A stretch of 64,000 bases of DNA. It comes from a virus. Both the position numbers and the translations under genes were made by a program. Shown piece after piece: positions 9,172-62,528 of the stretch (position 1 is the first letter of the stretch; every line of letters starts with the position of its first letter). Below the pieces are notes generated by a model. The model was not told where the DNA came from. It ran no database searches and saw only the letters and a list, made by a program, of their open reading frames with translations. The stretch covers positions 1 to 64,000 of the IMG/VR virus record IMGVR_UViG_3300032116_000033; one strand, 5' to 3'.

Positions 9172-9869
9172 GCGTCGTCTCCTTGTGTTAATAATATTTT
9201 GCTTCCTTTGGAAAGATTCTCTGACTCCCACAGAGGCTGAAGATTGGTATAATGAAAGGCTTTAAAAAACTCATCAGGATTTGATAGATCGAAACTTGAC
9301 ACTGGAAGTATATGATCGATATGCCAGCCTTCTCTACCCCAATTGTCCCACGTCATACCGGGCTTAAATTTAGCCTCAAGATGAGCCTTTAGATCTTCAG
9401 TGCTGCACCCTATATACTGCTCATACTTTCCTAGCTTAGAGCCGCCTTTTATTGCGATTGACGTACGGCATCTAATCTGATTCTCAATCCTTTTTAAGAG
9501 ATTCTTTCTCTTGTTTCTCTCAAACTCTCTTGCTCTGTTTCTTTTCTTCTCAAGCCACTGAGGATCTTGGGCTCGTCTTGCATACATTTCTTTACGCTCT
9601 TCTTGAGAGTAAGTCTTTCTCTTTTCTTCTTTATCAGTGCCTTTGTTTCTTAATCTTCTTAAGCGTTTATTTTCTCTTTCTCGTTCCGGATTTTCCGCCA
9701 TCCATTTTGTGCGATGGTCTTTGTATCTTTGTTTATTGTTTTTAACATATTCACTTGCTTTTATATTACGGCACTTTTTACATTGATTTTGAAGTCCGTC
9801 TTTTGCTTTACTAGAGCAATGAAAGTCAGAACGATCTTTTTCAAGTTTACAGTTAGTGCAAGTCTTCAT
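9168..9869 (-). CDS. HNH-type homing endonuclease
   Basis: N-terminal CxxC...CxxC; C-terminal GMTWDNWG..WHIDHILP...HYTNLQPLW; AT-rich. Confidence 0.8.
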   Translation of the reverse strand: MKTCTNCKLEKDRSDFHCSSKAKDGLQNQCKKCRNIKASEYVKNNKQRYKDHRTKWMAENPERERENKRLRRLRNKGTDKEEKRKTYSQEERKEMYARRAQDPQWLEKKRNRAREFERNKRKNLLKRIENQIRCRTSIAIKGGSKLGKYEQYIGCSTEDLKAHLEAKFKPGMTWDNWGREGWHIDHILPVSSFDLSNPDEFFKAFHYTNLQPLWESENLSKGSKILLTQGDDA

Positions 9870-34458: not shown

Positions 34459-34843
34459 ACTTTCGACCAACGAGGACGATCGTCAGGATCTTTGGGTGCG
34501 ATACCTAGAAAACCCTGACTCTGATTTATACAGTAATATCGAAGACATAAGCTTCAGAAACTCTATAAGAGACAGGATCGCCGACGACATAGTGAACCTC
34601 TACACCTCAACGCTTAAGGTCGGCTTTGTTCAGAATATACTCAGTAATTTCACCGACCTAGAGCGCTCAATCATAGTTCTCATCCTTTTAGGTCTATCCA
34701 ACGAGCAGATATCAAGGTATAAGATGATAGGGTTGCTGCGTCTAAATCAGACGCTGCACAACATCTCTTTGCACCCAGTGTGGGAGACCTTGCGTGTCGA
34801 AGAAAAAGCTAAGCTCGGAGCAGAAGCACGGGCTGACCGGTGA
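34409..34843 (+). CDS. small sigma-factor-like / HTH protein
   Basis: EDDRQDLWV (region 2-like) and FTDLERSIIVLILLGLSNEQIS (region 4-like HTH). Confidence 0.5.
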   Translation: MRNKDPKIMMIKEKIDRLSTNEDDRQDLWVRYLENPDSDLYSNIEDISFRNSIRDRIADDIVNLYTSTLKVGFVQNILSNFTDLERSIIVLILLGLSNEQISRYKMIGLLRLNQTLHNISLHPVWETLRVEEKAKLGAEARADR

Positions 34844-35405
34844 ACAGATCGCAGAGATCGAGCGTTACCTTCGTCAGCCGACTGCGTCAGGCGCGATAGA
34901 CAAACAAGAAGCATCACCGATATACGAGCTGTTCCTGATCGGCTACAGCACCGAGGAACTTGCCGCTCGATTTCCGCAGTACTCCAAGTCGCGCATACTG
35001 TACACGGCTGCCGCCGGCGGATGGGTGAAGGACAAGGAAAGGCTGGCGAGCTCGATATACGACCGCATCAGGGCCAGGATAATCAGGTCCACCGTAGAGC
35101 AGGTCGAGTTCCTGACCGACATGATAACCGTTTCGTCGGTCGAGAACGCGGACGAGATAAGGAAGTTCCTTGACGATCCCAAGAACAACCCGCTGCCGAA
35201 CATGCGCATAAAGAACTTCAAAGAGTACCAGCAGGTCATCGACACCTTGGCCAAGGTCACCGACTCGGTCCGCTCGCTCACCAACCCGAACGCGCAGCAG
35301 GAGGCGAGGGTGGTAAAGACTAAGTCGACGAAGAAGCTTCTGCCAAAGTCAGAAGAGGCCATGCTCCTTGAGCAGCTCGTGCAGGTAGACGACGATGGAC
35401 AGTAA
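34794..35405 (+). CDS. putative terminase small subunit
   Basis: HTH-like N-half; directly upstream of and overlapping terL. Confidence 0.5.
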   Translation: MSKKKLSSEQKHGLTGEQIAEIERYLRQPTASGAIDKQEASPIYELFLIGYSTEELAARFPQYSKSRILYTAAAGGWVKDKERLASSIYDRIRARIIRSTVEQVEFLTDMITVSSVENADEIRKFLDDPKNNPLPNMRIKNFKEYQQVIDTLAKVTDSVRSLTNPNAQQEARVVKTKSTKKLLPKSEEAMLLEQLVQVDDDGQ

Positions 35406-37650
35406 GAACAGGACATGCACCGTAGAAGGCTGCAGCAAACCGTTGAAGTCCAGAGGCTACTGCACCGGGCACTATAAGTCTATAATCGACCGACCAAAGA
35501 TCAAGCAGAAGAAGATCGAGGAGACCAAGGCTGCGCGCCAGGAGGTGATAAACCGCAAGATCTCAGAGAACGCGTCCAAGTTTACGCCAGAGCAGCTGGA
35601 GCGTATACTGCTAACGCCGTGCCGCACGGAGAAAGACCTCAAGAACTTTATCCGGTACTTCTTCAACCTACACCTGCCAGACTGCAAGGTCTCCAGGTAT
35701 GCAGACACCACTCCTTTTCATGCAGTTTGGGACGTGTACGACATATGCACGAACAACAACAATCCGCAAAATATCCAAGAATTACTGTATGTTGCAGGAA
35801 GGGGCAGCGGTAAGTGCGTTTCGCAAGATACTGTAATCATTACCAATAGTGGTACCAAATATGTACAAAACGTTAAGGTTGGCGATTTAGTTTGGACCGG
35901 CTGGTCCTGGAAACCCGTGGTCGAAACTTTTGACGAAGGCATTAAAGATGGCGTAACCATTACTACCAAACATCTTACCAAAGATGGCGCATGGTCTTTG
36001 ACTGGTTCCTTAAAGCATCGTGTTCAAGCCCTTGACCCCGAGACCGGCAAGATCGACTGGGTCTACATGAAAAATCTTATTCCGGGCCAGTTGATCTATA
36101 GGTCCTTAGAGTCACTAGGTGCCTTAGTAGACACGTCTTCTAACGATTACGAACTAGGATGGCTTGTTGGCTGCATAACCGGAGATGGTTCTGTTAGTCG
36201 CTTTGATAATGCCATATCTTTTGCCGCAAAAGATAAAGATCAATTAGCAATATATATAGATACTATAGTCAAACATTTTGGCGTAGAACCAAAAGTGAAA
36301 TATGACAAAAGATCGCCAAATCTCAGTATAGCTGGTATCTGTAGCAAGGCTTTAAGAGAATACTGCGACTCCATTATCGAGGGCGAACTCTGCTATTTCA
36401 AAAAGCTGAAGACATTGAACCATAGTCCAAGTTTTCTGGCTGGTTTTATATCTGGAATGATGGAGACCGATGGCTCCAAAGACTCGATAACGTTAGCCAA
36501 TCCAGAGCTCATAAAACAAATAGCTCAGATTTTGAATTTATTCGGTGTTCATGCCGTCATCAACAAAAAACGACGCAAGCCTTCTACAACTAAGTTTGTT
36601 AAAGACCACGTAGTGGAGTATCACTGCGTCGATTATAAAACCGCTCTACCAGAATATTTGATGCCATTGTTCTCTAAGCGCGAGGCCTTCAAGATCTACA
36701 GCGCTAAGATGAACGAGCAGTTTCGCTATCCGTCTAAATTGTTGAAACCCTTTGCATCTTTTATAAAAGACAAGTATGAGATCGCGAATGGATACTGGCG
36801 TCTCGAGGCGGGAAAAAAGACCCACTCCGATATAAAGTATTCTAAAGATCTTTGGGGATCTGGCGAGAAGGCTAAGGAGCTTTATGTCTACGGTTACAAG
36901 ATCGATTATTTCATAGATCTAGCGAAACGCCTAGAGGAATATGATTGGGCCGACTACCTTTCCTTCGTCAGGAGGGGGTGTTACGAGACCGTAGATTCAG
37001 TTGCCTTTGGCAAACATTACTTCTACGATCTTGAAGTAGACGTCGATCACGCGTACTGGTCGAACGGCTTCATCAGCCACAACACCCTCGGCATGGCCAT
37101 AGCTGAGCTTCTAGTGCTGATGCACGATCAGCGCGATGTGGTGCACGTGGGCGCGATCCTTTCTCAGGCAAAACGATGCTACGAGTATCAGCAGAAATTC
37201 CTTCTTTCAGACCGAATAAAGCCGATAGTGAACCCACCGAAGGTCAGCGAAGAGAACAAGATCCTAGAGAAGATGACGATGGAGAAGTCAGTGTTCAACA
37301 TCAAGAGTGAGAAAGTCACACTTGAAGTGCTCCCGTGCACGCTGCGAGCGTGCCTGGTTTCCTCCGCTACGTCAACCGATGTGCATGGTACAATAAGATC
37401 ATTGGCAGATTTCAAGCCAGGCGATTTTATCAAAGACACCACCGGCTTCGTCGAGGTCCTCGGCAACGAGCTAGAAGACGCCGAGTGCATAAGGATAGAG
37501 CTAGAAGATGGAAGAGTCATCGAAGGAACCCTCGACCACAAAGTCTGGACCCAGCGCGGATGGATCGAGCTTCAGCACCTCACCGACGCCGACGAGATCT
37601 CATCCTTGGAAAGCACCTCAACGCGAGCGCATGCAGAAGTTAAAGCGTAA
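35395..37650 (+). CDS. terL: terminase large subunit, N-terminal precursor (cis intein + split-intein N half)
   Basis: Walker A AGRGSGK|T interrupted by an intein; ORF ends in an intein N fragment. Confidence 0.88.
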   Translation: MDSKNRTCTVEGCSKPLKSRGYCTGHYKSIIDRPKIKQKKIEETKAARQEVINRKISENASKFTPEQLERILLTPCRTEKDLKNFIRYFFNLHLPDCKVSRYADTTPFHAVWDVYDICTNNNNPQNIQELLYVAGRGSGKCVSQDTVIITNSGTKYVQNVKVGDLVWTGWSWKPVVETFDEGIKDGVTITTKHLTKDGAWSLTGSLKHRVQALDPETGKIDWVYMKNLIPGQLIYRSLESLGALVDTSSNDYELGWLVGCITGDGSVSRFDNAISFAAKDKDQLAIYIDTIVKHFGVEPKVKYDKRSPNLSIAGICSKALREYCDSIIEGELCYFKKLKTLNHSPSFLAGFISGMMETDGSKDSITLANPELIKQIAQILNLFGVHAVINKKRRKPSTTKFVKDHVVEYHCVDYKTALPEYLMPLFSKREAFKIYSAKMNEQFRYPSKLLKPFASFIKDKYEIANGYWRLEAGKKTHSDIKYSKDLWGSGEKAKELYVYGYKIDYFIDLAKRLEEYDWADYLSFVRRGCYETVDSVAFGKHYFYDLEVDVDHAYWSNGFISHNTLGMAIAELLVLMHDQRDVVHVGAILSQAKRCYEYQQKFLLSDRIKPIVNPPKVSEENKILEKMTMEKSVFNIKSEKVTLEVLPCTLRACLVSSATSTDVHGTIRSLADFKPGDFIKDTTGFVEVLGNELEDAECIRIELEDGRVIEGTLDHKVWTQRGWIELQHLTDADEISSLESTSTRAHAEVKA
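35815..37083 (+). mobile_element. cis intein 1 (423 aa, LAGLIDADG) in TerL Walker A
   Basis: Starts CVSQDT; SLKH block B; LVGCITGDG and FISGMMETDG; ends FYDLEV...ISHN followed by Thr. Confidence 0.92.
37351..37647 (+). mobile_element. split intein, N half (99 aa)
   Basis: CLVSSA start; IELEDGRVIEGTLDHKVWTQRGW block B; stop codon with no C-terminal block. Confidence 0.88.
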
Positions 37651-38428
37651 AGCCGACTACTGTGAATCCTGCCAGAAGCCTCTCTACAAGAATGTCTACA
37701 CGACGTGCAAGGAATGCCGCCTAGATAAAGGCTGCACCAAGTGTGGTTCCTCTATCTTTCGCAGGGGCATGTGTAGGTCCCATTACGATAAAGATAGATT
37801 TGCAACTCGACCTAGATGCTCCGAATATGACTGCAAAGAAAATGCAAAGCACAACGGGCTTTGTTCTGTGCACTACAACGCCAACAAACTAAAACAGGCC
37901 CCAGAGTGCTCAATTTCTGGGTGCACAAAGAAGGTTGAGAAAAAAGGCTTATGTGGCACGCATTATCAAGCGTGGCGAATTAGGCAACCTAAAAAGAAAT
38001 GCTCCCATGCTTCATGCGACAACAATGCCTTCAAGCATAAACTTTGTTTTTCACACTGGAAGATATTCGATCCAGAAACGGCTTTCGTGCGCGGCATAAG
38101 GGTGAGGATAACCAACTCGATCAACAGGCGCTACAAGAAGAACGACAAGGCCGAGAAGCTGTTGGGGCTCAACATAGAGGGAGTTAGAAGACACCTGGAG
38201 TCCTTGTTCCAGCCGGGGATGTCGTGGGACAACTTTGGTAGCTGGCACATCGACCACATATGTCCTTGTTCTCAGGCTCAGAACGAAGAAGAGCTCATAA
38301 AGCTGCAGCACTACACCAACCTTAGCCCGATGTGGAAAGACGAGAACTTCGCAAAGCGTGACACTGCTACGGAGCAAGCAATAGCATCGTGCAGTAGGCT
38401 TCTGGGAAGGGGGTGGATTGGTCCATGA
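37631..38428 (+). CDS. HNH homing endonuclease with repeated CCCH zinc fingers, inside the fractured terL locus
   Basis: Cx4Cx9Cx2H(Y/W) repeats; GMSWDNFG.WHIDHICP...HYTNL; likely start MQKLKR overlaps the terL-N stop. Confidence 0.8.
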   Translation: MQKLKRKADYCESCQKPLYKNVYTTCKECRLDKGCTKCGSSIFRRGMCRSHYDKDRFATRPRCSEYDCKENAKHNGLCSVHYNANKLKQAPECSISGCTKKVEKKGLCGTHYQAWRIRQPKKKCSHASCDNNAFKHKLCFSHWKIFDPETAFVRGIRVRITNSINRRYKKNDKAEKLLGLNIEGVRRHLESLFQPGMSWDNFGSWHIDHICPCSQAQNEEELIKLQHYTNLSPMWKDENFAKRDTATEQAIASCSRLLGRGWIGP

Positions 38429-38481
38429 GCTGCTTTGTAAAAAAAATGCACCGTAATCAAGGCTAATTGATAAATATCGGG

Positions 38482-38514
38482 TATAATCCCTATGGCACTA
38501 AGGGGATTATATTG
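38482..38514 (+). promoter_or_regulatory. TATAAT in the 5' arm of a hairpin masking the RBS of the endonuclease gene
   Basis: TATAATCCC / GGGATTATA perfect 9-bp stem; AAGGGG RBS; in-frame TTG at 38512. Confidence 0.6.
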
Positions 38515-40170
38515 TCTAACGTCAGGACATCACCAGACAAGATACGGCAGCTTCTGCTGGAGAAGCACGGCGGCCTAGTGTCTATAGACGTCTCAACCTT
38601 CTGCGGCATGAACAAGAAAGCCAAGTTCATCGACGTAGACCACGGAGAGTGGTGGGCGACGCCTACGAAGGTGGTCACATGCGGCCAAAAGCACCCCAAT
38701 AGAAGAAAGATATCGCTTGCGGACATAATCGCCGCACTCGATACAAACCATCAAGGTCTAGTTTTTATAGACTCAAGCTCGTACTCTTCCTCCAACAAGA
38801 AAGCCAAGTTCATCGACGTAGACCACGGAGAGTGGTGGGCTCCGGTGTACAAGGTTGCTTTCTACGGTCAGTCTCATCCTGGAAGAAAGTCTAAGAAGCT
38901 GTCGGACAGCCGTGCGTCGACCCACACCACAGACGACTTCAGGGCAAAGATGAGTCAGAGGATAAAGGAAAAATACCACGACATAGCGAGCACGAACCTC
39001 CAGCGGTACGGCGTGTCCACTCCGCTGCTCCTGCCAGAGACGATAGACAAGAACAGGTCCCGCTTCCTTAGCCCTGAGGCCTTGAAGAAGAAAGAAGAGA
39101 CCAGAGCCGAAAGAAGATTAAGACTAAACGAGAGAAAGAGATCTAAAAGGACAAAGGCGGATCCAGCGGATAGGCTACGAAAACTTCAAGAGATCGGCGT
39201 AGCTAAGAGCTTAGACGGAAGATCCATCAAAGATATATGGAAGCTCAACTTCGCAGACAAGATAAGCTACTCGTTCGTGTGCAAGATCTATGCCAAGCAC
39301 CTACCAGCTACGGAGAGCGATTTTATCAGCCTAGTCGAAGAGCACTTTACCATGAGCGACATAGAAACGCTAATGAGCTCAAATCCTATGTTATCAAGGT
39401 TCGATAAGTTCCCGGCAAAAGGATGCAACATAAGACCTGACTTCAAGGTCTCCGATCGCGTCTACGTCAACGTCGACGGTCTATACTGGCACTCGGACAA
39501 AACATTACACAAGAAATACCACCTGAAGGCAAGGCTAAAAGCAGAAGAGTTTAACTTAAGGCTCCTGCAGTTCAGGGCAGACGAGGTGATCTACAAGCGG
39601 TCGATCGTCGACTCTATGATAGCGGTAAAGGCTGGCGCGGTGAAAGATAAACTCCATGCCAGGAAGCTTGATATAAGACAAGTGACCGCACCGGAGGCGA
39701 AGACCTTCCTCAAGGCCAACCATCTCATGGGGTTCGCGTCCGCTTCCGTGTATCTGGCCCTCAAGGACGTAGATCAGATAAAAGTCCTGCTCTCCTTAAG
39801 GTTCGAGGGCAGTCAAGTAAAAATAGTAAGGTTCGCTTCTGCGCTGAGCACCGTGGTCGTTGGCGGTTACTCCAAGCTGCTCAAGTATGCTATAAAGACG
39901 TTCGATATAGATAAGATCTACACGTTCGTCGACCTGCGGTACGGCGACGTCGCCTCGCTCAAGGACATGGGCTTCGTGCACGTCGGCACCACGCTGGGAT
40001 GGAAGTGGACCGACTACGACAAGACCTACAATCGTCTGTTCTGCAAGGCTAACATGGACGAGAGAAAATTGACACAGAAAGAGTACGCCAAAGAGCTTGG
40101 CTTGGTCAAGATCTACGACGCGGGTCAGGCGAAGATGGTCTTAAGCGTTGACAGAGGTTCAGATGGCTAA
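38512..40170 (+). CDS. putative homing endonuclease (Vsr/PD-(D/E)XK-like), paralog of 53015-54556
   Basis: TNLQRYGV repeat; RPDF...VNVDGLYWH; FVDLRYG; IYDAGQ. Confidence 0.75.
   Translation: MSNVRTSPDKIRQLLLEKHGGLVSIDVSTFCGMNKKAKFIDVDHGEWWATPTKVVTCGQKHPNRRKISLADIIAALDTNHQGLVFIDSSSYSSSNKKAKFIDVDHGEWWAPVYKVAFYGQSHPGRKSKKLSDSRASTHTTDDFRAKMSQRIKEKYHDIASTNLQRYGVSTPLLLPETIDKNRSRFLSPEALKKKEETRAERRLRLNERKRSKRTKADPADRLRKLQEIGVAKSLDGRSIKDIWKLNFADKISYSFVCKIYAKHLPATESDFISLVEEHFTMSDIETLMSSNPMLSRFDKFPAKGCNIRPDFKVSDRVYVNVDGLYWHSDKTLHKKYHLKARLKAEEFNLRLLQFRADEVIYKRSIVDSMIAVKAGAVKDKLHARKLDIRQVTAPEAKTFLKANHLMGFASASVYLALKDVDQIKVLLSLRFEGSQVKIVRFASALSTVVVGGYSKLLKYAIKTFDIDKIYTFVDLRYGDVASLKDMGFVHVGTTLGWKWTDYDKTYNRLFCKANMDERKLTQKEYAKELGLVKIYDAGQAKMVLSVDRGSDG
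38611..38840 (+). repeat. exact 47-bp direct repeat (38611-38657, 38794-38840)
   Basis: AACAAGAAAGCCAAGTTCATCGACGTAGACCACGGAGAGTGGTGGGC occurs twice, 183 bp apart, in frame. Confidence 0.9.
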
Positions 40171-40294
40171 GGTAACGAAAATCGAGCGCACGGGCATAAA
40201 GCAAATAGCGAAATTGGAGGTTCGTTCAAGCGACGATCCGACCAATCCGATGTCAAATTCGTTTGTTACAGCTGACGGCACCATCAACCACAAC
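40163..40294 (+). mobile_element. split intein, C half (44 aa)
   Basis: MAKVTKIERTGIKQIAKLEV...NSFVTADGTINHN followed by Cys. Confidence 0.88.
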
Positions 40295-42826
40295 TGCAAT
40301 GGACCACACGTGCCGCTGGTCGTGGTGGACGAGATTGATACAGTATCAGGCGAGGGGCTTAGAGCCTACAAAGAAATCTCCGGTATGCTCGACTCCAAGC
40401 GCGGCCGTAAGCCGCTGCGCGTGGGCATATCGACCAGAAAGTCGCGATACGGTCTCATGAACCAAGCCATCGAGAACGCCGAGAAGCAGGGCAGACATGT
40501 TCGTCGCTGGACCGCATTTGAGTTCACCGAGCGATGCCCAGACTCACGATCTGGAACGCAGCGCCAAGAATACTACATCGATCAGCAGTCGTTCGACGTG
40601 AGATCTCCGTCAGAGTTCGAGAAGCTCGGCGAGCAGAGGAAGAAAGAGTACGAGAGATACGAGATGTACATAGGCTGCGGGAAATGCCCACTCGCTCCTA
40701 TATGCCTCGGCGACGCCAAGAATCAAGTCTCAGAATCGCCGATGCTCAAGTCTATAGACGAGCTCGCGCAGAAGGTCTTGTCAGAGGGTCCTGACTGGGC
40801 GATGTCCCAGCTGATGAATCTAAAGCCGTCGGTCGAGGGGATCATCTACAAAGAGTTCGACGAGCGCATGCACGTCAAGACCTGGAACCAGATGTGGTTG
40901 TCGCTGACCGGAAAAGAGTTTCCTGGCGAGTGCAACCACGATATATTCGTCAAGAAATGCTTCAGTGACGACACTGAGGTTTTGACGAACAACGGCTTTA
41001 AGCTTTTTAAAGATCTTACTGAGTATGACACTCTAGCCACCCTAGACAACGGTGGTGTGTTAAACTACCAGAAACCGATAGAGCACATCTCGTATCACTA
41101 TAAGGGAAAGATGGTAAACCTTTACAATGAGATAGGCGGAGGCAAGCACCATCTCGACCTTCTGGTTACTCCCAACCACGATGTCGAGTACCTTCACGGT
41201 AGAAACTTCAGAAAGAAGCAAGAGATAAAGCTTTTGAAGCAGCGAGCAGACTCTCTTGACGAGCTGAACGATTTTTACATACCGGCTACCTGGCTTTCCG
41301 GCTCTACAGCAAACAACATGGACATAAAATCTCCTATAAGCTTCATGACCGGCGATCAGTTTATGGCCTTCATGGGGCTTTGGCTGAGCGAAGGCTCTAT
41401 GAGTTCGACAAGAGCAAACGACGAGTGGGGGCACAACAAGGTAGAGGTTTCTCAGTCTAAGAGCAGAGACGCCTCTGACAAGGTTGAGCGGCTTATGGCA
41501 TCGATAGCTTGGCCCAACAAGCTTCACAGAGAGTCTGATGCTCGGGATCAGGTTGACTATACGACAAACTGGTCCGTATACAACAAAGAACTATATAATT
41601 ACTTAAAGCCTTTAAAGTTTGCCGTCAACAAGTTGATATCTAGGAACATACTTGAACAAGCTTCCCGCAGGCAGCTATCGATCCTTTTGGAGTGGCTATG
41701 CTTCGGGGACGGCTCGTACATGTTCGACGGATCAAGGCAACAGCCTTATTATTCAACAGGCTCTGAGCAGCTTGCCAACGATGTTCAAGAGCTATGCTTT
41801 AGATTGGGATATAAGAGTTCTCTTTCAATGCAGGGTAATCAAGGCAAAACGCACAAGAACACAGGGACTGAGTACCTAAGACGTTTTAGAGTTAATTTTC
41901 ACTTTAAGACAAACAACAAGCCAGCAGATCGTTCGTACTACATCAACAACGGAACCAACAAGAGCGAATATTCTAATAAAACACAAGGAAACATAGGTGA
42001 AGTAGACTACGATGGAATGGTCTATTGTGTAACGATGCCCTCGTCTAGGTTATTTGTTCGCCGCAACGGAGTAATATCGCTGAGCGGCAACTGTCACAAC
42101 ATGGGTCTTCCAGCGTACGCCGGCATCGACTGGGGATGGTCAAACCCGCACACGCTCGTGGTATTTTTCGTGGACGCAAAAGAGAACATATACGTCGTAA
42201 GATGCGACGGCATGACGTATATATCAAGGCCCACGTGGATGCACCACATCAAGAACAAGTGGCATCAGCCATACCGTATCCAACTCTACTTTCCTGACCA
42301 AGCGGATCCTGGTGACGCAGTAGAGATGAGGAAGCTTGGCCTTCCGACTTCGACAAACACAGACAAGGGCAACATCAACACCGGCATACAGATCATAAAG
42401 AAGTGGCTTAAGATTCCAGGCACTGCCGAGTCTAAGCTTTTCATTGCTCAGGAGACATGTCAGGCTCTGATAAGGGAGTTCCAGCTCTACCACTACAAAA
42501 CCGATGCCGCTGGCCAGATATCAGACACTCCAGACAGCGAGCACGATCACTGGCTGGATGCTTTACGATACCCGCTGACGAACCTTTTCGGCAAGAACCA
42601 GATCGTGCTTTCATCTGCCGGTTTGGACGTCGATATGGCAAAACTGGTTGATAACAATGGAAATTTCTTCAAGGCGCCCACTCCAGAAGAGTACGCGAAA
42701 CTCAACAACCTGCCGTTTAATCCAGAGGTTAATGCCGATAAGCTTGGTAAAATAGGAAGGCTGTCTGAGATCGATGACGAGGAAGACGATAAGTCTGTAG
42801 ACGGTGGATTTCTTTGGACGTTTTGA
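40163..42826 (+). CDS. terL: terminase large subunit, C-terminal precursor (split-intein C half + cis intein)
   Basis: GAGG RBS and ATG; Walker B VVVDEID; ISTRK coupling motif; nuclease GIDWG and DHWLDALRY; portal follows. Confidence 0.9.
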   Translation: MAKVTKIERTGIKQIAKLEVRSSDDPTNPMSNSFVTADGTINHNCNGPHVPLVVVDEIDTVSGEGLRAYKEISGMLDSKRGRKPLRVGISTRKSRYGLMNQAIENAEKQGRHVRRWTAFEFTERCPDSRSGTQRQEYYIDQQSFDVRSPSEFEKLGEQRKKEYERYEMYIGCGKCPLAPICLGDAKNQVSESPMLKSIDELAQKVLSEGPDWAMSQLMNLKPSVEGIIYKEFDERMHVKTWNQMWLSLTGKEFPGECNHDIFVKKCFSDDTEVLTNNGFKLFKDLTEYDTLATLDNGGVLNYQKPIEHISYHYKGKMVNLYNEIGGGKHHLDLLVTPNHDVEYLHGRNFRKKQEIKLLKQRADSLDELNDFYIPATWLSGSTANNMDIKSPISFMTGDQFMAFMGLWLSEGSMSSTRANDEWGHNKVEVSQSKSRDASDKVERLMASIAWPNKLHRESDARDQVDYTTNWSVYNKELYNYLKPLKFAVNKLISRNILEQASRRQLSILLEWLCFGDGSYMFDGSRQQPYYSTGSEQLANDVQELCFRLGYKSSLSMQGNQGKTHKNTGTEYLRRFRVNFHFKTNNKPADRSYYINNGTNKSEYSNKTQGNIGEVDYDGMVYCVTMPSSRLFVRRNGVISLSGNCHNMGLPAYAGIDWGWSNPHTLVVFFVDAKENIYVVRCDGMTYISRPTWMHHIKNKWHQPYRIQLYFPDQADPGDAVEMRKLGLPTSTNTDKGNINTGIQIIKKWLKIPGTAESKLFIAQETCQALIREFQLYHYKTDAAGQISDTPDSEHDHWLDALRYPLTNLFGKNQIVLSSAGLDVDMAKLVDNNGNFFKAPTPEEYAKLNNLPFNPEVNADKLGKIGRLSEIDDEEDDKSVDGGFLWTF
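40958..42091 (+). mobile_element. cis intein 3 (378 aa, LAGLIDADG)
   Basis: CFSDDTEVLT start; VTPNH; GLWLSEGS and WLCFGDGS; ends VYCVTM...LSGN followed by Cys. Confidence 0.9.
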
Positions 42827-42865
42827 TAAGTATAATAAATAAAAGCGCATATTATTGGAGACTTT

Positions 42866-44785
42866 ATGTCTTGGATTGAAGATATCAAGAAAGCGGTTAC
42901 CGACTCGATTCGCAAGGACATAGAGGACTTAACAAAAGTCGACGCAGACGACGCGCCAGACAAATCCCAAAGTCAGCCGGGCACCGGCGAGCTCGTAGGC
43001 GCCAAGGCCATACTGACCGACCCGTTCTACGACCACGCGGTCCACAACTACTTTCTCTCAAAGAGCAGGGTCTCTCGCATATCTAACAGAACCCTGCGCG
43101 AGATATCGATGCGCGACTGGCTCGTGAACACGATCCTTCAGATCCGCTGCGATACGGTCCTGAGGTTCTCTCGCCCCCAGCACAAGCGCTTCGACATGGG
43201 ATACAAGTTCGTCAAGACAGACCACTCGGCCATGTCTCAGGAAGACATCGACAACATCCGCATGCTGGAAGACTTCGTCTACCACTGCGGTCGCATAGAC
43301 GGAACGCCTCGCGGCGAGGAGATGCTCTTCGGCGAGTTCGTCAAGCTCATCGTGTGGGACGCGCTCTGCTTCGGCCACATCGCGTGCGAGAAGGTCCTGA
43401 CCAGGAAAGGCGGCCTTCACAGGTTCCGTCCCCTGCCCGCGGAGACGGTCTACAAGGTAAACCCCAACATCAACCGAGCCACGGTAGAGGGCCAGGCCAA
43501 GGTCGCCGTAGACCTGTATCACAAGAAAAGATCCGACAACGACTCGTCTAACCGCGGCCACGTAAACACGCCCGAGATCGAGTACTTCAAGTACGTCCAG
43601 CAGTCGGTCGACAACCGAGTCCTCAACGTCTTCGGCGACGAGGACATGATCTTCAAGCTGTTCAATCCCAAGAACTTTGCAGACTCGAACGGTTACGCCA
43701 TATCCATGGTCGAGCAGTCGGTGATAATGATCACGAACCACCTTAACGTGGAATCATACAATGCGAACTACTTCACCCATGGCTACGCTGCACGAGGAAT
43801 ACTACACCTTAAGGGCACGGTTACTCAGAACACTCTTGCATCTTTCCGTCGTCAGTTCTACAACACTATATCAGGATCCAACAATGCTTGGCGGACGCCT
43901 ATAGTCGCCGGCCTAGACGACGTGCAGTGGATACCGATGTCTGGTTCGGCCAAGGAGATGGAGTACATCAACTTCAACTCCCACATCATGCGAAGCATAT
44001 GCGCGCAGTTCCAGATCGACCCCATCGAGGTCGGCCTCGACTACCTTACCACGGCGAACGGTCGCGCGGCCTCTCAGGCCAAAGAGTCAGGCCAGTTCAA
44101 GATCACGTACTCTCGCGAGCGTGGTCTGCTGCCGATACTGTTCTTCATCGAGGACCTGATAAACCAAGATGTCGTTCCTGCGCTGGACAAAACGCTGGCA
44201 GAGCGCTATAAGTTCAAGTTCGTAGGCTACACGGACGATACACCTCAGACAGATATATCGCTCAGACAAGCGCAGCAGACAGTTTTTGCTTCTATGAACG
44301 ATCTTCTGAAAAATGAAGACAAAAAACCCCTTAGTCATCCAATTGCAGATCTTCCTCTTAATCAGTCGTTCTGGACTCTTGTAGACAAGATGATGACCAA
44401 GGGAGAGCAACGTGAGTTCTTTCTGGGTGATACTGGAGCAACAAATAGAAATGAATTAAAATATCTACCAGGCGATCCTATGTTCCTTCAATTTCAAAAT
44501 CTGCTTATGACAAAGCAGGCCCATAAAGAAGCAAAAGATCAACAGCAGCAACAGATGGAAATGCAGCAGCAACAGCTTCAGTCTCAGCAAGATGTCGTCG
44601 ATGGTCAGGCTGAAAGACAAAAACAAGCAGATGCTCAGGCAGCGGTTCGGCAAAGCAAGCAAGAGTCTCCTGTACAGCAGCTTCAGGAATCCGCTAAGCA
44701 GTACGGCGCAACTCGAGCTGGAAGCGTAGAAGGCCAGGTCATGCGCAACCCGATAAACGCCGCCGCAGAAGCCGAAAAAGAGTGA
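42866..44785 (+). CDS. portal protein
   Basis: Follows terL; NYFTHG..ARGIL, FRRQF...G.NNAWRTP, EMEY, ICAQFQIDPIEVG portal-like motifs. Confidence 0.85.
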   Translation: MSWIEDIKKAVTDSIRKDIEDLTKVDADDAPDKSQSQPGTGELVGAKAILTDPFYDHAVHNYFLSKSRVSRISNRTLREISMRDWLVNTILQIRCDTVLRFSRPQHKRFDMGYKFVKTDHSAMSQEDIDNIRMLEDFVYHCGRIDGTPRGEEMLFGEFVKLIVWDALCFGHIACEKVLTRKGGLHRFRPLPAETVYKVNPNINRATVEGQAKVAVDLYHKKRSDNDSSNRGHVNTPEIEYFKYVQQSVDNRVLNVFGDEDMIFKLFNPKNFADSNGYAISMVEQSVIMITNHLNVESYNANYFTHGYAARGILHLKGTVTQNTLASFRRQFYNTISGSNNAWRTPIVAGLDDVQWIPMSGSAKEMEYINFNSHIMRSICAQFQIDPIEVGLDYLTTANGRAASQAKESGQFKITYSRERGLLPILFFIEDLINQDVVPALDKTLAERYKFKFVGYTDDTPQTDISLRQAQQTVFASMNDLLKNEDKKPLSHPIADLPLNQSFWTLVDKMMTKGEQREFFLGDTGATNRNELKYLPGDPMFLQFQNLLMTKQAHKEAKDQQQQQMEMQQQQLQSQQDVVDGQAERQKQADAQAAVRQSKQESPVQQLQESAKQYGATRAGSVEGQVMRNPINAAAEAEKE

Positions 44786-46688: not shown

Positions 46689-47339
46689 GTGGGCGATCTA
46701 GAATTTAATCAGCAATGCACATGCGGACAGCCTGTATCTCATAAAAGATATAGGCTGTGTAGCAATTGCTATAAAGATAAAAGAAAACAAGATTGGAAAA
46801 TAAACGAACAAATTCGTAGAGCAAATGATCCAGATAGAGTTCGCAAAATATCGGAAGCAAAATCAAATAAATATAAAGAACTTAAGGTCCTTAGACCTAA
46901 AGTGCCTAAAAAATGTGCATGCGGAAACGTTGCTCTAAAAGGATCTAGGCGTGTATTGTGTGAAACCTGCTCGAAAGAAAATAGAAGAACTAAGAAAATA
47001 AAATATCAAAACAATAGAAAGAAAACTCACACACCCTCAAAGATTCGTGAAAATATTAAAAGTAGACTCAAAAGAGCATTAAAAAGCAATAAGTCTATGT
47101 CTATTGTTGAATACTTAGGTTGCTCTATGGATTTTTATATAAAATACTTAGAATCTAAATTCTTACCCGGCATGACTTGGGAAAACTATGGTATAAATGG
47201 ATGGCACATAGATCATATAATTCCATTAAGTACAGATTATAGTAATTTAGATTTGCATAACTATAAGAATACTCAGCCTATTTGGGAAAACGACCACTTA
47301 TTAAAAACCTCACAAGAAAACAAAAGAGAGGGAACTTAA
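46689..47339 (+). CDS. HNH homing endonuclease
   Basis: GMTWENYG..GWHIDHIIP; strongly AT-rich. Confidence 0.8.
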   Translation: MGDLEFNQQCTCGQPVSHKRYRLCSNCYKDKRKQDWKINEQIRRANDPDRVRKISEAKSNKYKELKVLRPKVPKKCACGNVALKGSRRVLCETCSKENRRTKKIKYQNNRKKTHTPSKIRENIKSRLKRALKSNKSMSIVEYLGCSMDFYIKYLESKFLPGMTWENYGINGWHIDHIIPLSTDYSNLDLHNYKNTQPIWENDHLLKTSQENKREGT

Positions 47340-47827: not shown

Positions 47828-48604
47828 ATGAGGAAAGCTTGGAACTACGTAGAGATAGAAGCTGGCACTAGATTTGGTCAACTGGTTGTCGTAGAAGAAA
47901 CAAGTACCGATCGTCAAAATAGACGCTTTAAATGCTTATGCGACTGCGGAAAAGAACACGAAACAAGCTATGCCTGCCTGCGATACGGCAAGTCTAAATC
48001 TTGCGGCTGCTTAAAAATAAGAGAAACAATAGAACGACACAACTCAACCCGCGGCTCTACTGTAGTCGGTCTTGCTAACGGTTCATGGGTGGTTTTCTCT
48101 TATTCTGGTCGCACGTACAATTGTCGCTGCGAAGTTTGCGGCAGCGAGAAAAGCTTCAACGAGTCATCCTTTAAGTGCGGCGGCATATCGTCGTGTTGTA
48201 GACCGGTCTCTAGGAATCATGTCTATTACAAAAGATCGCTGCGGACGTGCATCGGCATGGCTATAGGCAAGCAATATAAGAAAACTCAAAAATCCGCGGA
48301 TATGCTTGGTATGCCTATAGACGAAGTGCTTAAGCACATAGAGTCGCTGTGGCAGCCTGGCATGAGTTGGAAAAATAAAGGCAAACGTGGACCAGATGGC
48401 TGGGACATCGATCATATATGTCCTTGCTCTCAAGCGCAGAACGAAGAAGAGCTAATAAAGTTACAGCATTACACAAACTTGAGGCCGATGTGGGCGATCG
48501 ATAACAGGACTAAGAATGATTTTAAAACCCCAGAGGGAGAAGACATATGCCAAAAACTTCTGGGGCGAGAGTGGATAGATAAACCTAAGTGGTACAATCT
48601 ATAA
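47828..48604 (+). CDS. HNH homing endonuclease
   Basis: GTRFGQLVV...CLCDCG...SKSCGC; WDIDHICPCSQAQNEEELIKLQHYTNL. Confidence 0.8.
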   Translation: MRKAWNYVEIEAGTRFGQLVVVEETSTDRQNRRFKCLCDCGKEHETSYACLRYGKSKSCGCLKIRETIERHNSTRGSTVVGLANGSWVVFSYSGRTYNCRCEVCGSEKSFNESSFKCGGISSCCRPVSRNHVYYKRSLRTCIGMAIGKQYKKTQKSADMLGMPIDEVLKHIESLWQPGMSWKNKGKRGPDGWDIDHICPCSQAQNEEELIKLQHYTNLRPMWAIDNRTKNDFKTPEGEDICQKLLGREWIDKPKWYNL

Positions 48605-49524: not shown

Positions 49525-50169
49525 ATGAAGACGTGCAGTAAGTGTAAAGAGTCTAAGAGTTTAGATAGTTTTGCAGGAGACAACAAAAGATCCGACGGAA
49601 AGCGCCCTTCCTGCAAGCAGTGCAATAGGGCTTTCTATAAGCAAAACTACAGCAAGGGCGACATACCGACGCCGATGACCGAAGAAGAGAAGCGCAAGAT
49701 AAGATCAGACTACTACAAAGACAACAAAGATATGCTGCTGGCCAAACATGCCAAGTGGAGATCAGAGAACAAAGATACAATAAAAGGGCTGAATCGCGCC
49801 TGGTACGAGAAGAACGGCAAGCAGTACTATAAAGACCGCTATGAAAATGATCTAAACTTCAGGATGTTGAAGGTGATAAGGTCTCGCTTAAACTCCGCGA
49901 TAAAAAACTGCGCCAAGACCGGATCGGCGGTGTCCTCGCTTGGCTGCTCGATAGAGGAGCTCAAGTCGCACCTGGCCGAGATGTTCCAGCCTGGTATGTC
50001 GTGGGACAACTGGGGCAAAGGCGATGGAAAATGGAACATAGACCACATCATTCCATTGAGCTCGTTCGACCTGTCGAATCCTGACGAATTCAACAAAGCC
50101 TGCAATTATAAAAACTTACAACCGCTGTGGGAGTTTGACAATCTTTCCAAGAAAGACAGACTAATTTAA
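49525..50169 (+). CDS. HNH homing endonuclease
   Basis: MKTCSKC; GMSWDNWG...WNIDHIIP...NLQPLW. Confidence 0.8.
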   Translation: MKTCSKCKESKSLDSFAGDNKRSDGKRPSCKQCNRAFYKQNYSKGDIPTPMTEEEKRKIRSDYYKDNKDMLLAKHAKWRSENKDTIKGLNRAWYEKNGKQYYKDRYENDLNFRMLKVIRSRLNSAIKNCAKTGSAVSSLGCSIEELKSHLAEMFQPGMSWDNWGKGDGKWNIDHIIPLSSFDLSNPDEFNKACNYKNLQPLWEFDNLSKKDRLI

Positions 50170-53017: not shown

Positions 53018-54556
53018 TCTAGACTTACAGCAAAAGCAAACGATAAATACAATAGATGGACTTTCGTAGAAAAGAAACTTGGAGACGACGGTCGCCAGGT
53101 TGGATGGATCTGTAGGTGTGACTGTGGAACAGAGCGATTGATAAAGACGCCCAACACTATTCTTCACGGTAAGTCTCAGTCTTGTGGCTGCTACAAATCA
53201 GAGTTCTTTTCTGAAAACAATCCAATGTACAGAGAAGATATTGTTGAAAAAGTAAGACAATCTATGAAGTCTGATCCTAACAGACCAGAGATCTTAAAAA
53301 GGGCAGTCGAAGCCTCCAAGTCTCAACAGACCAAAAACAAAAGAAAGTCCACTAATCAGCTCAAATACGGCGGAGCAGCTCCTGCATGCAGCCCTGATAT
53401 CAAGGATAAGATCAAGTCTACCAATATTGACCGCTACGGAACTTCTGCTCCAAGTCAAAATAAAGAAGTGTTCGCAAAGATGTCTATGACAAACTTAGAA
53501 CGCTACGGTGTAGAAAATGCTATGCTCAACAAAGACGTAGCAATGAAGGTTGCAAGTTCTATATCTCAAACTCTAAGAGAAAAGGGAATTCAATCTTTTC
53601 CAGATGGCAGGATAGTCGTCGATTCCTGTAAAGAAAAAGGAGTAAGGCCTACTTCGCTTCGCAATGTCGCTAGAGAGCTTGGATGGGACGCTGCGCAAGA
53701 CTGGTTGGATAATTATCATAAACATCGTTCTTCTTTGGAGCTTCTGTCAATAAACATGTTTAAGAACAGCGGGTTAGATGCAGAGGCTTACAATCTTGGC
53801 GTCCCAGAGATGCTGGAAAAAGGTATTAGATATAGGCCAGATATCATATTGAAGCACGACAATAAAACTATATATGTAGATGTAGACGGACTATATTCAC
53901 ACTCGATGCGCGACAAACAATACCACATTAAAAAGGCATATACATATAAAGAAAACAACGTGCGTCTACTTCAGTTTCGCCAGGACGAAATAAAGAATAC
54001 TCCTGACATAGTCTGTTCTATGGTCGCCAATGTATTGGGTTTAAGCAAAAAGATAGGAGCTAGAAAACTTGAAGTTAAAAGCATCTCGGTCGACGATGCC
54101 GCTGCCTTTATGCAAAGCAACCATCTTATGGGCTCAGCAAGATGCTCGACTGCTATTGCTTTGGTCCTTAACTCAGAACCAATGATGGTTATAACGTATC
54201 GTCGTCACAAGGATGGCATAGACTTGGTCAGAGTCGCAACAAAGATTGGTTTTCAGATTCAGGGCGGATTGTCTCGTCTTCTGAAGCGTATAGAAACGTT
54301 ATCTAAACCACGATTCATTCAGTCGTTTGTAGATCTGCGCTACGCTGACGGTTCCAGCTTAAAGGCTGTAGGTTTTAATTTGATGTCTGTGACCTTAGGA
54401 TGGCAGTGGACAGACAATCATAATACGTTTAATAGACTGCGTTGTCGCGCAAATATGGACGACAGGCTGCTGTCAGAGAAACAACACGCAGAAGAACTTG
54501 GATGGACAAGGCTATATGACGCAGGTCAGGCAAAGTATGTTATGTATTGTGTTTAA
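53015..54556 (+). CDS. putative homing endonuclease (Vsr/PD-(D/E)XK-like)
   Basis: CRCDCG..SCGC; three TNxxxYG repeats; RPDI...VDVDGLYSH; FVDLRY; LYDAGQ. Confidence 0.75.
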   Translation: MSRLTAKANDKYNRWTFVEKKLGDDGRQVGWICRCDCGTERLIKTPNTILHGKSQSCGCYKSEFFSENNPMYREDIVEKVRQSMKSDPNRPEILKRAVEASKSQQTKNKRKSTNQLKYGGAAPACSPDIKDKIKSTNIDRYGTSAPSQNKEVFAKMSMTNLERYGVENAMLNKDVAMKVASSISQTLREKGIQSFPDGRIVVDSCKEKGVRPTSLRNVARELGWDAAQDWLDNYHKHRSSLELLSINMFKNSGLDAEAYNLGVPEMLEKGIRYRPDIILKHDNKTIYVDVDGLYSHSMRDKQYHIKKAYTYKENNVRLLQFRQDEIKNTPDIVCSMVANVLGLSKKIGARKLEVKSISVDDAAAFMQSNHLMGSARCSTAIALVLNSEPMMVITYRRHKDGIDLVRVATKIGFQIQGGLSRLLKRIETLSKPRFIQSFVDLRYADGSSLKAVGFNLMSVTLGWQWTDNHNTFNRLRCRANMDDRLLSEKQHAEELGWTRLYDAGQAKYVMYCV

Positions 54557-61946: not shown

Positions 61947-62528
61947 ATGCAGGTAATTGTTTGCAACAATTGTAAAAATACAAAATCTATAGATTGTTTC
62001 TATAGTTATAGTTTAACTAAATGTAAAGCTTGTTTTTCTGAATATCAAAAAGCATATCATGCTGCGAACAAAGACAAAAGATCAGAATATGCAAAAGAGC
62101 ATTATAAAGCAAATAGAGAAAATCATTTACTTAAAAACAAACAGTATTATTTAGAAAATAAGCTCAAACACCAAGAGGCATGTAGGTTAAGATCTCTTGA
62201 AAGAAGGCGCTCTGATATACAATATAAGTTGACTAAATTGTTAAGAAAAAGATTAAATAGCGCCATAAAGAACAAAGCTAAATCAGGCTCTGCTGTTAGA
62301 GATGTTGGGTGTACAATTGAGGAATTAAAGACTTATTTGGAGTCTAAATTTCAACCTGGCATGACATGGGAAAATTGGTCGCTAACTGGCTGGCACATAG
62401 ATCATATAGTTCCATTAAGTAAATTTGATCTAACCGATTCAGATCAACTAAGAAAAGCATGTCATTATACTAATTTGCAACCAATGTGGGCGAAAGACAA
62501 TCTTATAAAGAGTAATAAATATGTCTAA
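61947..62528 (+). CDS. HNH homing endonuclease
   Basis: GMTWENW..GWHIDHIVP...HYTNLQPMW; very AT-rich. Confidence 0.82.
   Translation: MQVIVCNNCKNTKSIDCFYSYSLTKCKACFSEYQKAYHAANKDKRSEYAKEHYKANRENHLLKNKQYYLENKLKHQEACRLRSLERRRSDIQYKLTKLLRKRLNSAIKNKAKSGSAVRDVGCTIEELKTYLESKFQPGMTWENWSLTGWHIDHIVPLSKFDLTDSDQLRKACHYTNLQPMWAKDNLIKSNKYV

Follow-up and report, generated by a model that had tools for sequence, protein, structure and literature searches.

The stretch analysed here, called the window throughout, comprises the first 64 kb (64,000 nucleotides) of a 134,893-bp record of an uncultured freshwater phage (IMG/VR record IMGVR_UViG_3300032116_000033), which is estimated to be 81% complete. Its region 35395-42826 encodes the large terminase subunit (TerL) and is filled by four open reading frames (ORFs), A to D, all on the same strand (+). 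The two TerL halves lie in ORF A and ORF D, in different reading frames, with 2,512 nucleotides (nt) between the stop codon of the former and the ATG of the latter. The TerL-coding pieces (exteins 1-4) are interrupted by two contiguous inteins, hereafter intein 1 and intein 3, and by a split intein, the N-terminal part of which (IntN) closes ORF A and the C-terminal part of which (IntC) opens ORF D, with two free-standing genes, ORF B and ORF C, in the gap. The features are as follows, with lengths in amino acids (aa) and with a slash marking each splice point.

35395-37650, + strand: ORF A, 751 aa.
35395-35814, + strand: extein 1, ORF A residues 1-140, whose C-terminal end is the Walker A motif GRGSGK; matches residues 5-101 of the TerL of Myxococcus phage Mx1.
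35815-37083, + strand: intein 1, 423 aa, ORF A residues 141-563; GSGK/C...FISHN/T, between the Lys and the Thr of the P-loop.
37084-37350, + strand: extein 2, 89 aa, ending in LEVLPCTLRA; matches Mx1 TerL residues 96-148.
37351-37650, + strand: IntN, 99 aa (37351-37647) plus the stop codon, ORF A residues 653-751; TLRA/CLVSS..TLDH..stop.
37508 or 37631 to 38428, + strand: ORF B, 306 or 265 aa by the start ATG chosen; free-standing gene for a putative HNH-type endonuclease; read from 37508, its 5' end shares nucleotides with IntN, in the +1 frame.
38467-40170, + strand: ORF C, 567 aa; free-standing homing-endonuclease-like gene, the stop of which overlaps the start of ORF D by 8 nt.
40163-42826, + strand: ORF D, 887 aa counted from its ATG.
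40163-40294, + strand: IntC, ORF D residues 1-44, with its own ATG; ..TINHN/CNGPH.
40295-40957, + strand: extein 3, 221 aa; CNGPHVPLVVVDEID (Walker B) through ..DIFVKK.
40958-42091, + strand: intein 3, 378 aa, ORF D residues 266-643; FVKK/CFSDD..TPNH..LSGN/CHNMG, before the nuclease domain.
42092-42826, + strand: extein 4, 244 aa plus the stop codon; RNase H-like nuclease domain (..AGIDWGWS..); matches Mx1 TerL residues 436-601.

Taken in order, the four exteins correspond to a single terminase. Phage Mx1, found by a tblastn search of phage records, has an intein-free TerL of 667 aa that aligns in order to ORF A residues 63-143 and 561-613 and to ORF D residues 29-258 and 652-819, and the four extein pieces also align in order to intein-free proteins of 640-700 aa. 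The hallmarks of TerL, namely Walker A (GRGSGK/T), Walker B (VVVDEID) and the nuclease motif (GIDWG), likewise follow one another in order across the exteins, the lengths of which add up to 694 aa. At the level of individual pieces, extein 3 is 31% identical to Mx1 TerL residues 186-420 (E 9e-27) and 59-97% identical to its counterparts in related loci, extein 2 is 49-87% identical to its own, and extein 4 matches PHROG 5653 'terminase large subunit' (E 1e-20) as well as PF17288 at a level below the cut-off (E 4e-4). Further, a profile of the ORF D side matches the terminase structure 5oe8 (E 1.4e-4); a phmmer search of the Protein Data Bank (PDB) with ORF D itself gave no match. These four extein places are the sole TerL matches in the 134,893-bp record. 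The gene order around TerL in Mx1 (phosphoesterase, two hypotheticals, TerL, hypothetical, portal) is the same in the window phage, and a megablast comparison of the locus in full length with 50,697 phage records yielded zero matches.

The junctions between the exteins can be located by comparison with 46 related loci (labelled L), which were obtained from a scan of viral contigs with IntC and extein 3, and among which proportions are biased by one of the six search patterns being specific to IntC. Their parts were mapped by local tblastn of ten parts, and the extein pieces were mapped individually, with zero gap, onto the intein-free loci. Extein 1 abuts extein 2 in the relatives that lack intein 1: this intein is present in 11 of the 40 loci holding both flanks, in one of them as a mini form, and the other 29 are empty with a zero gap. 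Intein 3 is found in only one of the 46 loci (L030, 91% identical), the exteins abutting exactly elsewhere. At the split site, 41 loci hold both flanks: in 24 of these, well beyond what chance would give, exteins 2 and 3 follow each other directly (gap of 0 nt), and the other 17 carry the same split intein. Because the exteins abut at zero gap in related loci, the three splice junctions, as predicted from these alignments, are exact.

The split intein itself combines an IntN with a net charge of -11 and an IntC whose first 21 residues have a net charge of +4. The sequence AGAGG lies 5 nt upstream of the ORF D ATG; across the 17 split loci a stop codon always follows IntN, and the IntC start codon, ATG or TTG, occupies a fixed position. 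The length of IntN is 91-99 aa where ORF B comes next, 84-86 aa elsewhere and 108 aa in L021, residues ~87-99 being a tail found only where ORF B follows. An earlier note on this DNA, made from its letters and ORF translations, had proposed much of this architecture: a TerL spread over two ORFs ~2.5 kb apart; a 99-aa acidic IntN at 37351-37647 (TLRA/CLVSS...TLDH); a 44-aa IntC with a basic N-terminus, its own ATG and a ribosome-binding site; one contiguous intein in Walker A and another ahead of the nuclease domain; a gap occupied by two unrelated genes for endonucleases; and a joined product of ~694 aa contiguous across RA/CNGPH. The computed ORF coordinates (35395-37650 and 40163-42826), charges, intein boundaries (GSGK/C...SHN/T and FVKK/C...SGN/C) and extein sum all agree with that proposal, the two gap genes fall into different families (PHROG 5351 for ORF B and PHROG 3339 for ORF C), and the Mx1 TerL as well as the 24 intein-free loci run straight through the junction.

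Homology to known inteins is clearest for the N-terminal part. Among the NCBIfam models, IntN matches RtcB_rel_intein (E 3.5e-6) and, at block B, intein_Nterm (E 0.0016), and a profile built from 41 N-half sequences matches the gp41-1 split intein (6qaz) with E 6.7e-5 over about 69 residues, with weak matches to DnaE, RecA and DnaB inteins (E 0.06-0.5). The comparison of both fragments with HINT-domain models, which the earlier note had suggested, bore out IntN, through the NCBIfam and 6qaz matches; IntC, too short by itself, had no match. A structure prediction for the IntN+IntC complex scored 0.57, as against 0.00 for the best of three controls, with a contact agreement between runs of at least 93% and a partner pLDDT of at least 70; it was graded 'weak support'. 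Of 80 solved complexes, 58 pass the same mark, as do 2 of 110 mismatched pairs; those that pass it with scores of 0.60 or under are only seven of the 80 and both mismatches. The pass obtained here may stem from likeness, since split inteins have solved structures.

Conservation of the split intein was followed in the 17 split loci, which represent 10 distinct sequences with identities of 48-75% for IntN and 48-93% for IntC, and in two sets of proteins (labelled P where individual ones are named). A search from the C side gave 445 hits at E ≤ 0.001, and the best 120 of these were sorted: 75 are plain intein-free TerL proteins of 640-700 aa, 26 are C-halves starting with IntC (that of the window is among them, and in five the IntC is too diverged for BLAST), four have a contiguous intein at the split site, and the remainder have intein 1, intein 3 or a zinc-finger N-terminus. 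In a further search, 40 proteins of the N-half type were obtained, which are 248-341 aa long and have IntN at the C-terminus. In the resulting alignments, Cys1 (C653 of ORF A) is invariant in all 41 N-half rows, T712, D714 and H715 of block B (TLDH, ORF A residues 712-715) are conserved in at least 90% of them, and the terminal Asn (N44) and the +1 Cys (C45) are invariant in all 26 C-half rows. The +1 residue is Cys in 17/17 split loci, and the contiguous loci, 24 in all, have Leu (16), Val (four) or Cys (four) there; with the position thus free in intein-free alleles, the nucleophile is kept only where splicing would need it. Additionally, median dN/dS (Nei-Gojobori, eight distinct loci) is 0.115 for IntN (13 of 28 pairs usable) and 0.106 for IntC (8 of 28), as compared with about 0.05 for the flanking exteins, all of these values being rough on account of synonymous sites near saturation.

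From the conserved catalytic residues, the dN/dS values and the complex prediction we infer protein trans-splicing by IntN and IntC. Under this model, ORF A would yield a polypeptide consisting of extein 1, the P-loop LAGLIDADG intein, extein 2 and IntN, and ORF D one consisting of IntC, extein 3, the second LAGLIDADG intein and extein 4. Inteins 1 and 3 would excise themselves in cis, and the acidic IntN and the IntC with its basic N-terminus would associate to form one HINT domain, which would splice in trans and join ..TLRA to CNGPH.. just before Walker B, producing a TerL of 694 aa. The putative gap endonucleases, one HNH-type and one probably Vsr-like, would ride in the break, and their removal would be unnecessary. 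The splicing itself, the activity of the endonucleases and their targets are the parts of this scheme that we infer. On the whole, the TerL gene of the window phage is best read, with a probability of about 0.88, as one gene burdened by five selfish elements, i.e., a 'fractured gene' with a trans-spliced product.

Several observations weigh against this reading. The matches of IntN to the curated intein_Nterm model fall below its cut-off, IntC alone, at a very short 44 aa, has no match to any family model, and the predicted IntN/IntC complex lends no more than weak support. At the penultimate position of IntC, 21 of the 26 rows have His, three have Ala and two have Lys or Arg, and intein 3 has Gly instead of His at that position, ending in Gly-Asn; such penultimate variants can slow splicing in other inteins. 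The saturation of synonymous sites limits the dN/dS comparison, and, with the record at an estimated 81% completeness, a second intact TerL could lie on the missing part.

The closest rival holds that the two halves assemble non-covalently, with IntN and IntC serving only as a dimerisation module of a two-chain terminase. A precedent exists in the endonuclease-split NrdA of an Aeromonas phage, which is reported to assemble via interaction domains (PMC3045599), and the charge complementarity and predicted association of IntN and IntC are equally compatible with binding alone. Nevertheless, Cys1, the terminal Asn and the +1 Cys are invariant, and the Thr and His of block B are at least 90% conserved, across 41 and 26 diverged rows, and Leu or Val is allowed at +1 only where the intein is absent. 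Since residues needed solely for the chemistry would otherwise drift, assembly by binding alone is disfavoured and is judged very unlikely. Even less probable is that TerL has been inactivated by endonuclease insertions, the stretch being a defective phage, decaying debris or an assembly artefact. The record is indeed an incomplete metagenome assembly; but all four ORFs are intact, and relatives as distant as about 50% identity, comprising 17 loci and dozens of proteins, retain this split, with a dN/dS of about 0.1. Further, 17 DNA sequencing runs (2017-2025) contain the stretch at 0.97-0.99 of sampled words; 16 of them are flagged as possible sources and do not count as independent, and in the one unflagged run (X17) DNA contigs span the whole stretch with zero indels and zero joints.

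It could also be argued that the gap is removed from the RNA, as a group I or group II intron or by RNA trans-splicing, and that the intein-like ends are coincidental or relics. Group I introns that contain endonuclease ORFs are indeed known from phage genes. Among the ORFs located in such introns are Vsr-like ones (Dassa et al. 2009, PMC2677866). Against this, a search of 35000-43200 with Rfam gave zero matches at E up to 1, the boundaries coincide with HINT motifs having conserved catalytic residues, and translation of IntC can begin at a conserved start codon of its own. Low-depth contigs assembled from three RNA libraries match at 100% identity inside intein 1, inside ORF C and over 40007-40302, i.e., the boundary of ORF C and ORF D, and no joint in them skips the gap, which is a weak argument given possible DNA carry-over; stretches without RNA-contig cover carry no evidential weight. 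Removal at the RNA level has the least probability of the three alternatives to a trans-spliced TerL.

The two contiguous inteins are both of the LAGLIDADG type. Intein 1 contains PF14528 (LAGLIDADG_3, E 1.4e-9) and matches TIGR01443 (intein_Cterm) at ORF A residues 542-564, and in one relative (P0013) a 129-aa mini form occupies the same site. In intein 3 the LAGLIDADG domain is recognized by PF14528 with E 4.2e-6, and its SGN/C ending is kept in P0020 and P0078. A C-half protein of 509 aa (P0002) is 99% identical to ORF D yet lacks intein 3, which suggests that the element was gained or lost very recently. At the split site, three contiguous TerL proteins of 1028-1029 aa (P0028, P0037 and P0092) contain a 386-aa LAGLIDADG_2 intein exactly at the position of the break (TLKA/C..SHN/CNGPH), and this allelic contiguous intein establishes the site as a proven intein home. 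It was considered as a close precursor of the split intein and rejected, its N part sharing just 30-33% of residues with IntN; a single site is thus home to two inteins that are only distantly related. Each element is present or absent independently of the others among the relatives, where partial combinations include the two gap genes (L020, L045), intein 1 with IntN (L019, L020) and IntC with intein 3 (P0020, P0059, P0080). The full five-element set occurs only in the window phage within the loci and proteins sampled. Hence, the description of the arrangement in the earlier note as 'unusually nested' holds for the complete set, which is unique in this sample, but not for its partial combinations, which are common to several relatives.

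Of the two gap genes, ORF B matches PHROG 5351 'HNH endonuclease' (E 2e-7) and has a ..WHIDH..N..N.. motif near its C-terminus; Pfam returned nothing for it with E up to 0.01, and a phmmer search of the PDB gave one chance match only (E 0.96). Eight paralogues of its HNH-type C-terminal domain, 31-57% identical, are found elsewhere in the phage genome, and several of them lie near structural genes:

9204-9473 (-), 46893-47312, 48224-48577, 49861-50160 and 62232-62516: paralogues of the ORF B domain in the window.
82880-83149 (-), 86343-86621 (-) and 126416-126688: paralogues of the ORF B domain in the rest of the record (G000).

In its longest form, ORF B begins with an ATG that is made by the Asp-Gly-Arg codons just upstream of block B (TLDH) of IntN. 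From this internal ATG, the +1 frame is open into ORF B in 4/4 loci that have ORF B; among seven ORF-B-free loci, it closes within 3-31 codons in six, and the remaining one (L006) is without the ATG. This pattern of open frames suggests that translation of the HNH gene may begin within IntN, in which case its expression would be coupled to that of this TerL half. A scan of 34700-43000 for promoters (9, as compared with 7.3±2.3 in shuffled sequence) and terminators (10, as compared with 8.1±2.6) remained at the level of the shuffles and is uninformative as to separate transcription units.

ORF C matches PHROG 3339 'homing endonuclease' (E 1e-38) and, by sequence, has Vsr-type motifs (RPDF, VDGLYWHS and FRADE), with a weak match to the NCBIfam Vsr model (E 0.11); neither Pfam (E up to 0.01) nor phmmer against the PDB gave a match, and the Pfam DUF559 cut-off is reached only by its L020 homologue, which is 36% identical to it. 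On the basis of these motifs ORF C probably belongs in the Vsr-like family. An AlphaFold model from seven sequences is mediocre (pLDDT 67.7), and a Foldseek search with it returned GNAT acetyltransferase folds and no Vsr, the matches covering ~180-190 columns with E 6e-5, a TMt of about 0.5 and a root-mean-square deviation of 8-12 Å, and including phage Mu Mom at E 3e-3. In this model the GNAT-like part is plausibly the C-terminal one. The N-terminus of ORF C contains two ~60-aa repeats (FIDxDHGEWWA..GQxHP). A paralogue at 53315-54544, within an open frame of 514 aa, is 35% identical to ORF C over residues 164-559. Given their paralogues elsewhere in the genome, ORF B and ORF C behave as multi-copy free-standing homing endonucleases.

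The content of the gap differs widely among the split loci. It comprises ORF B only in L008, ORF C only in L015 and L017-L019 (also in L016, where a contig edge cuts it), both ORF B and an ORF C-like gene in L045 and, with the latter reversed, in L020, and a reversed ORF C-like gene only in L021. Genes of other kinds are found in L006, L007 and L009-L014, where a Pol X-like nucleotidyltransferase of 179-182 aa (PF14791, E 3e-12) stands beside an ORF of 292-299 aa (e.g., L006:6501-7908 and L009:6502-7933), and in L038, where the gap contains a trypsin-like protease of 247 aa (L038:7251-7994; PF13365, E 1.5e-6) with an N-terminus that appears hydrophobic by eye. It is possible, at slightly short of an even chance, that the split intein, by freeing TerL from gene continuity, has turned the break into a stable landing pad for any gene, with a quick turnover of cargo.

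The locus is a crowded instance of the already known fractured-gene arrangement. As the earlier note had pointed out, fractured phage genes with an intervening endonuclease have been described: Dassa et al. (2009, PMC2677866) defined such genes among the hosts of gp41-1, gp41-8, NrdJ-1, IMPDH-1 and NrdA-2 and in a terminase locus with an atypical split. The endonucleases of those loci include a Vsr-like family, to which ORF C probably belongs. Like them, the present locus has its break between the N- and C-terminal HINT motifs, where an intein endonuclease is usually inserted, and the 99 and 44 aa of its intein parts compare with 88-105 aa for the N parts and 33-54 aa for the C parts given there; an acidic N part and a basic C part are common to those natural split inteins and the window pair. 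The terminase of that paper, in contrast, is gp17-like with an atypical break and a 122-aa C part, whereas that of the window is Mx1-like with a canonical break, and, unlike that terminase locus, the window has two endonuclease families in the gap and two contiguous LAGLIDADG inteins. For the GOS terminase intein, too, that paper describes a short N-terminal piece and a long C-terminal one, as opposed to the canonically split intein of the window. By profile, the nearest solved relative of IntN is the gp41-1 split intein (6qaz, 6riz), which also comes from a fractured phage gene but belongs to a distant family and has a helicase rather than a terminase as its host; the window intein has Cys at +1.

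The site of intein 1, between the Lys and Thr of Walker A, corresponds to the 'classic' P-loop insertion of the mycobacteriophage intein TerL1-a (Kelley et al. 2016, PMC5050341), although that intein is from another phage lineage and the one in the window coexists with two more inteins in one protein. In the literature on split-intein terminases, as represented largely by titles and the openings of abstracts, there was neither a canonically split TerL intein nor this combination of elements. In AceL-TerL and GOS-TerL, natural split inteins of phage large terminases, the N part is reportedly very short and the C part long. The dnaE gene of Trichodesmium erythraeum, in work attributed to Liu and Yang in 2003, is said to combine a split intein with further contiguous inteins in one gene; it differs from the window in reportedly being cellular, with halves that lie far apart in the genome and without endonuclease genes between them.

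As TerL is essential, the reproduction of this phage would depend on three protein-splicing events, one of them between two polypeptides. The locus would be a case from nature of an extreme load of selfish elements, five on one essential gene, which is conserved and apparently well tolerated. Within one phage family, a single site is either empty, occupied by a contiguous LAGLIDADG intein or occupied by a split intein with changing cargo, and this polymorphism bears on how inteins become split and on how free-standing endonucleases and other genes exploit the resulting break. It is in the family-wide polymorphism at three sites, together with the five-element load, that the interest of the locus lies. 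Moreover, the IntN/IntC pair, with its canonical split, Cys at both position 1 and +1, distance from gp41-1 and dozens of natural variants, is judging from these sequence features a plausible candidate for an orthogonal protein-ligation tool.

Apart from the inteins, the first ~60 aa of ORF A (35395-35580) form a subclade-specific N-terminal extension with a zinc-finger-like motif (CxxC..GYCxxHY), which is missing from the distant relatives L038-L050 and from the Mx1 TerL. Its match to Zf_WRKY19 (E 0.0039) lies below the Pfam cut-off, and the extension of one relative (P0007) reaches 25 bits. ORF B contains this zinc-finger-like motif as well, with at least four copies in its N-terminal half.

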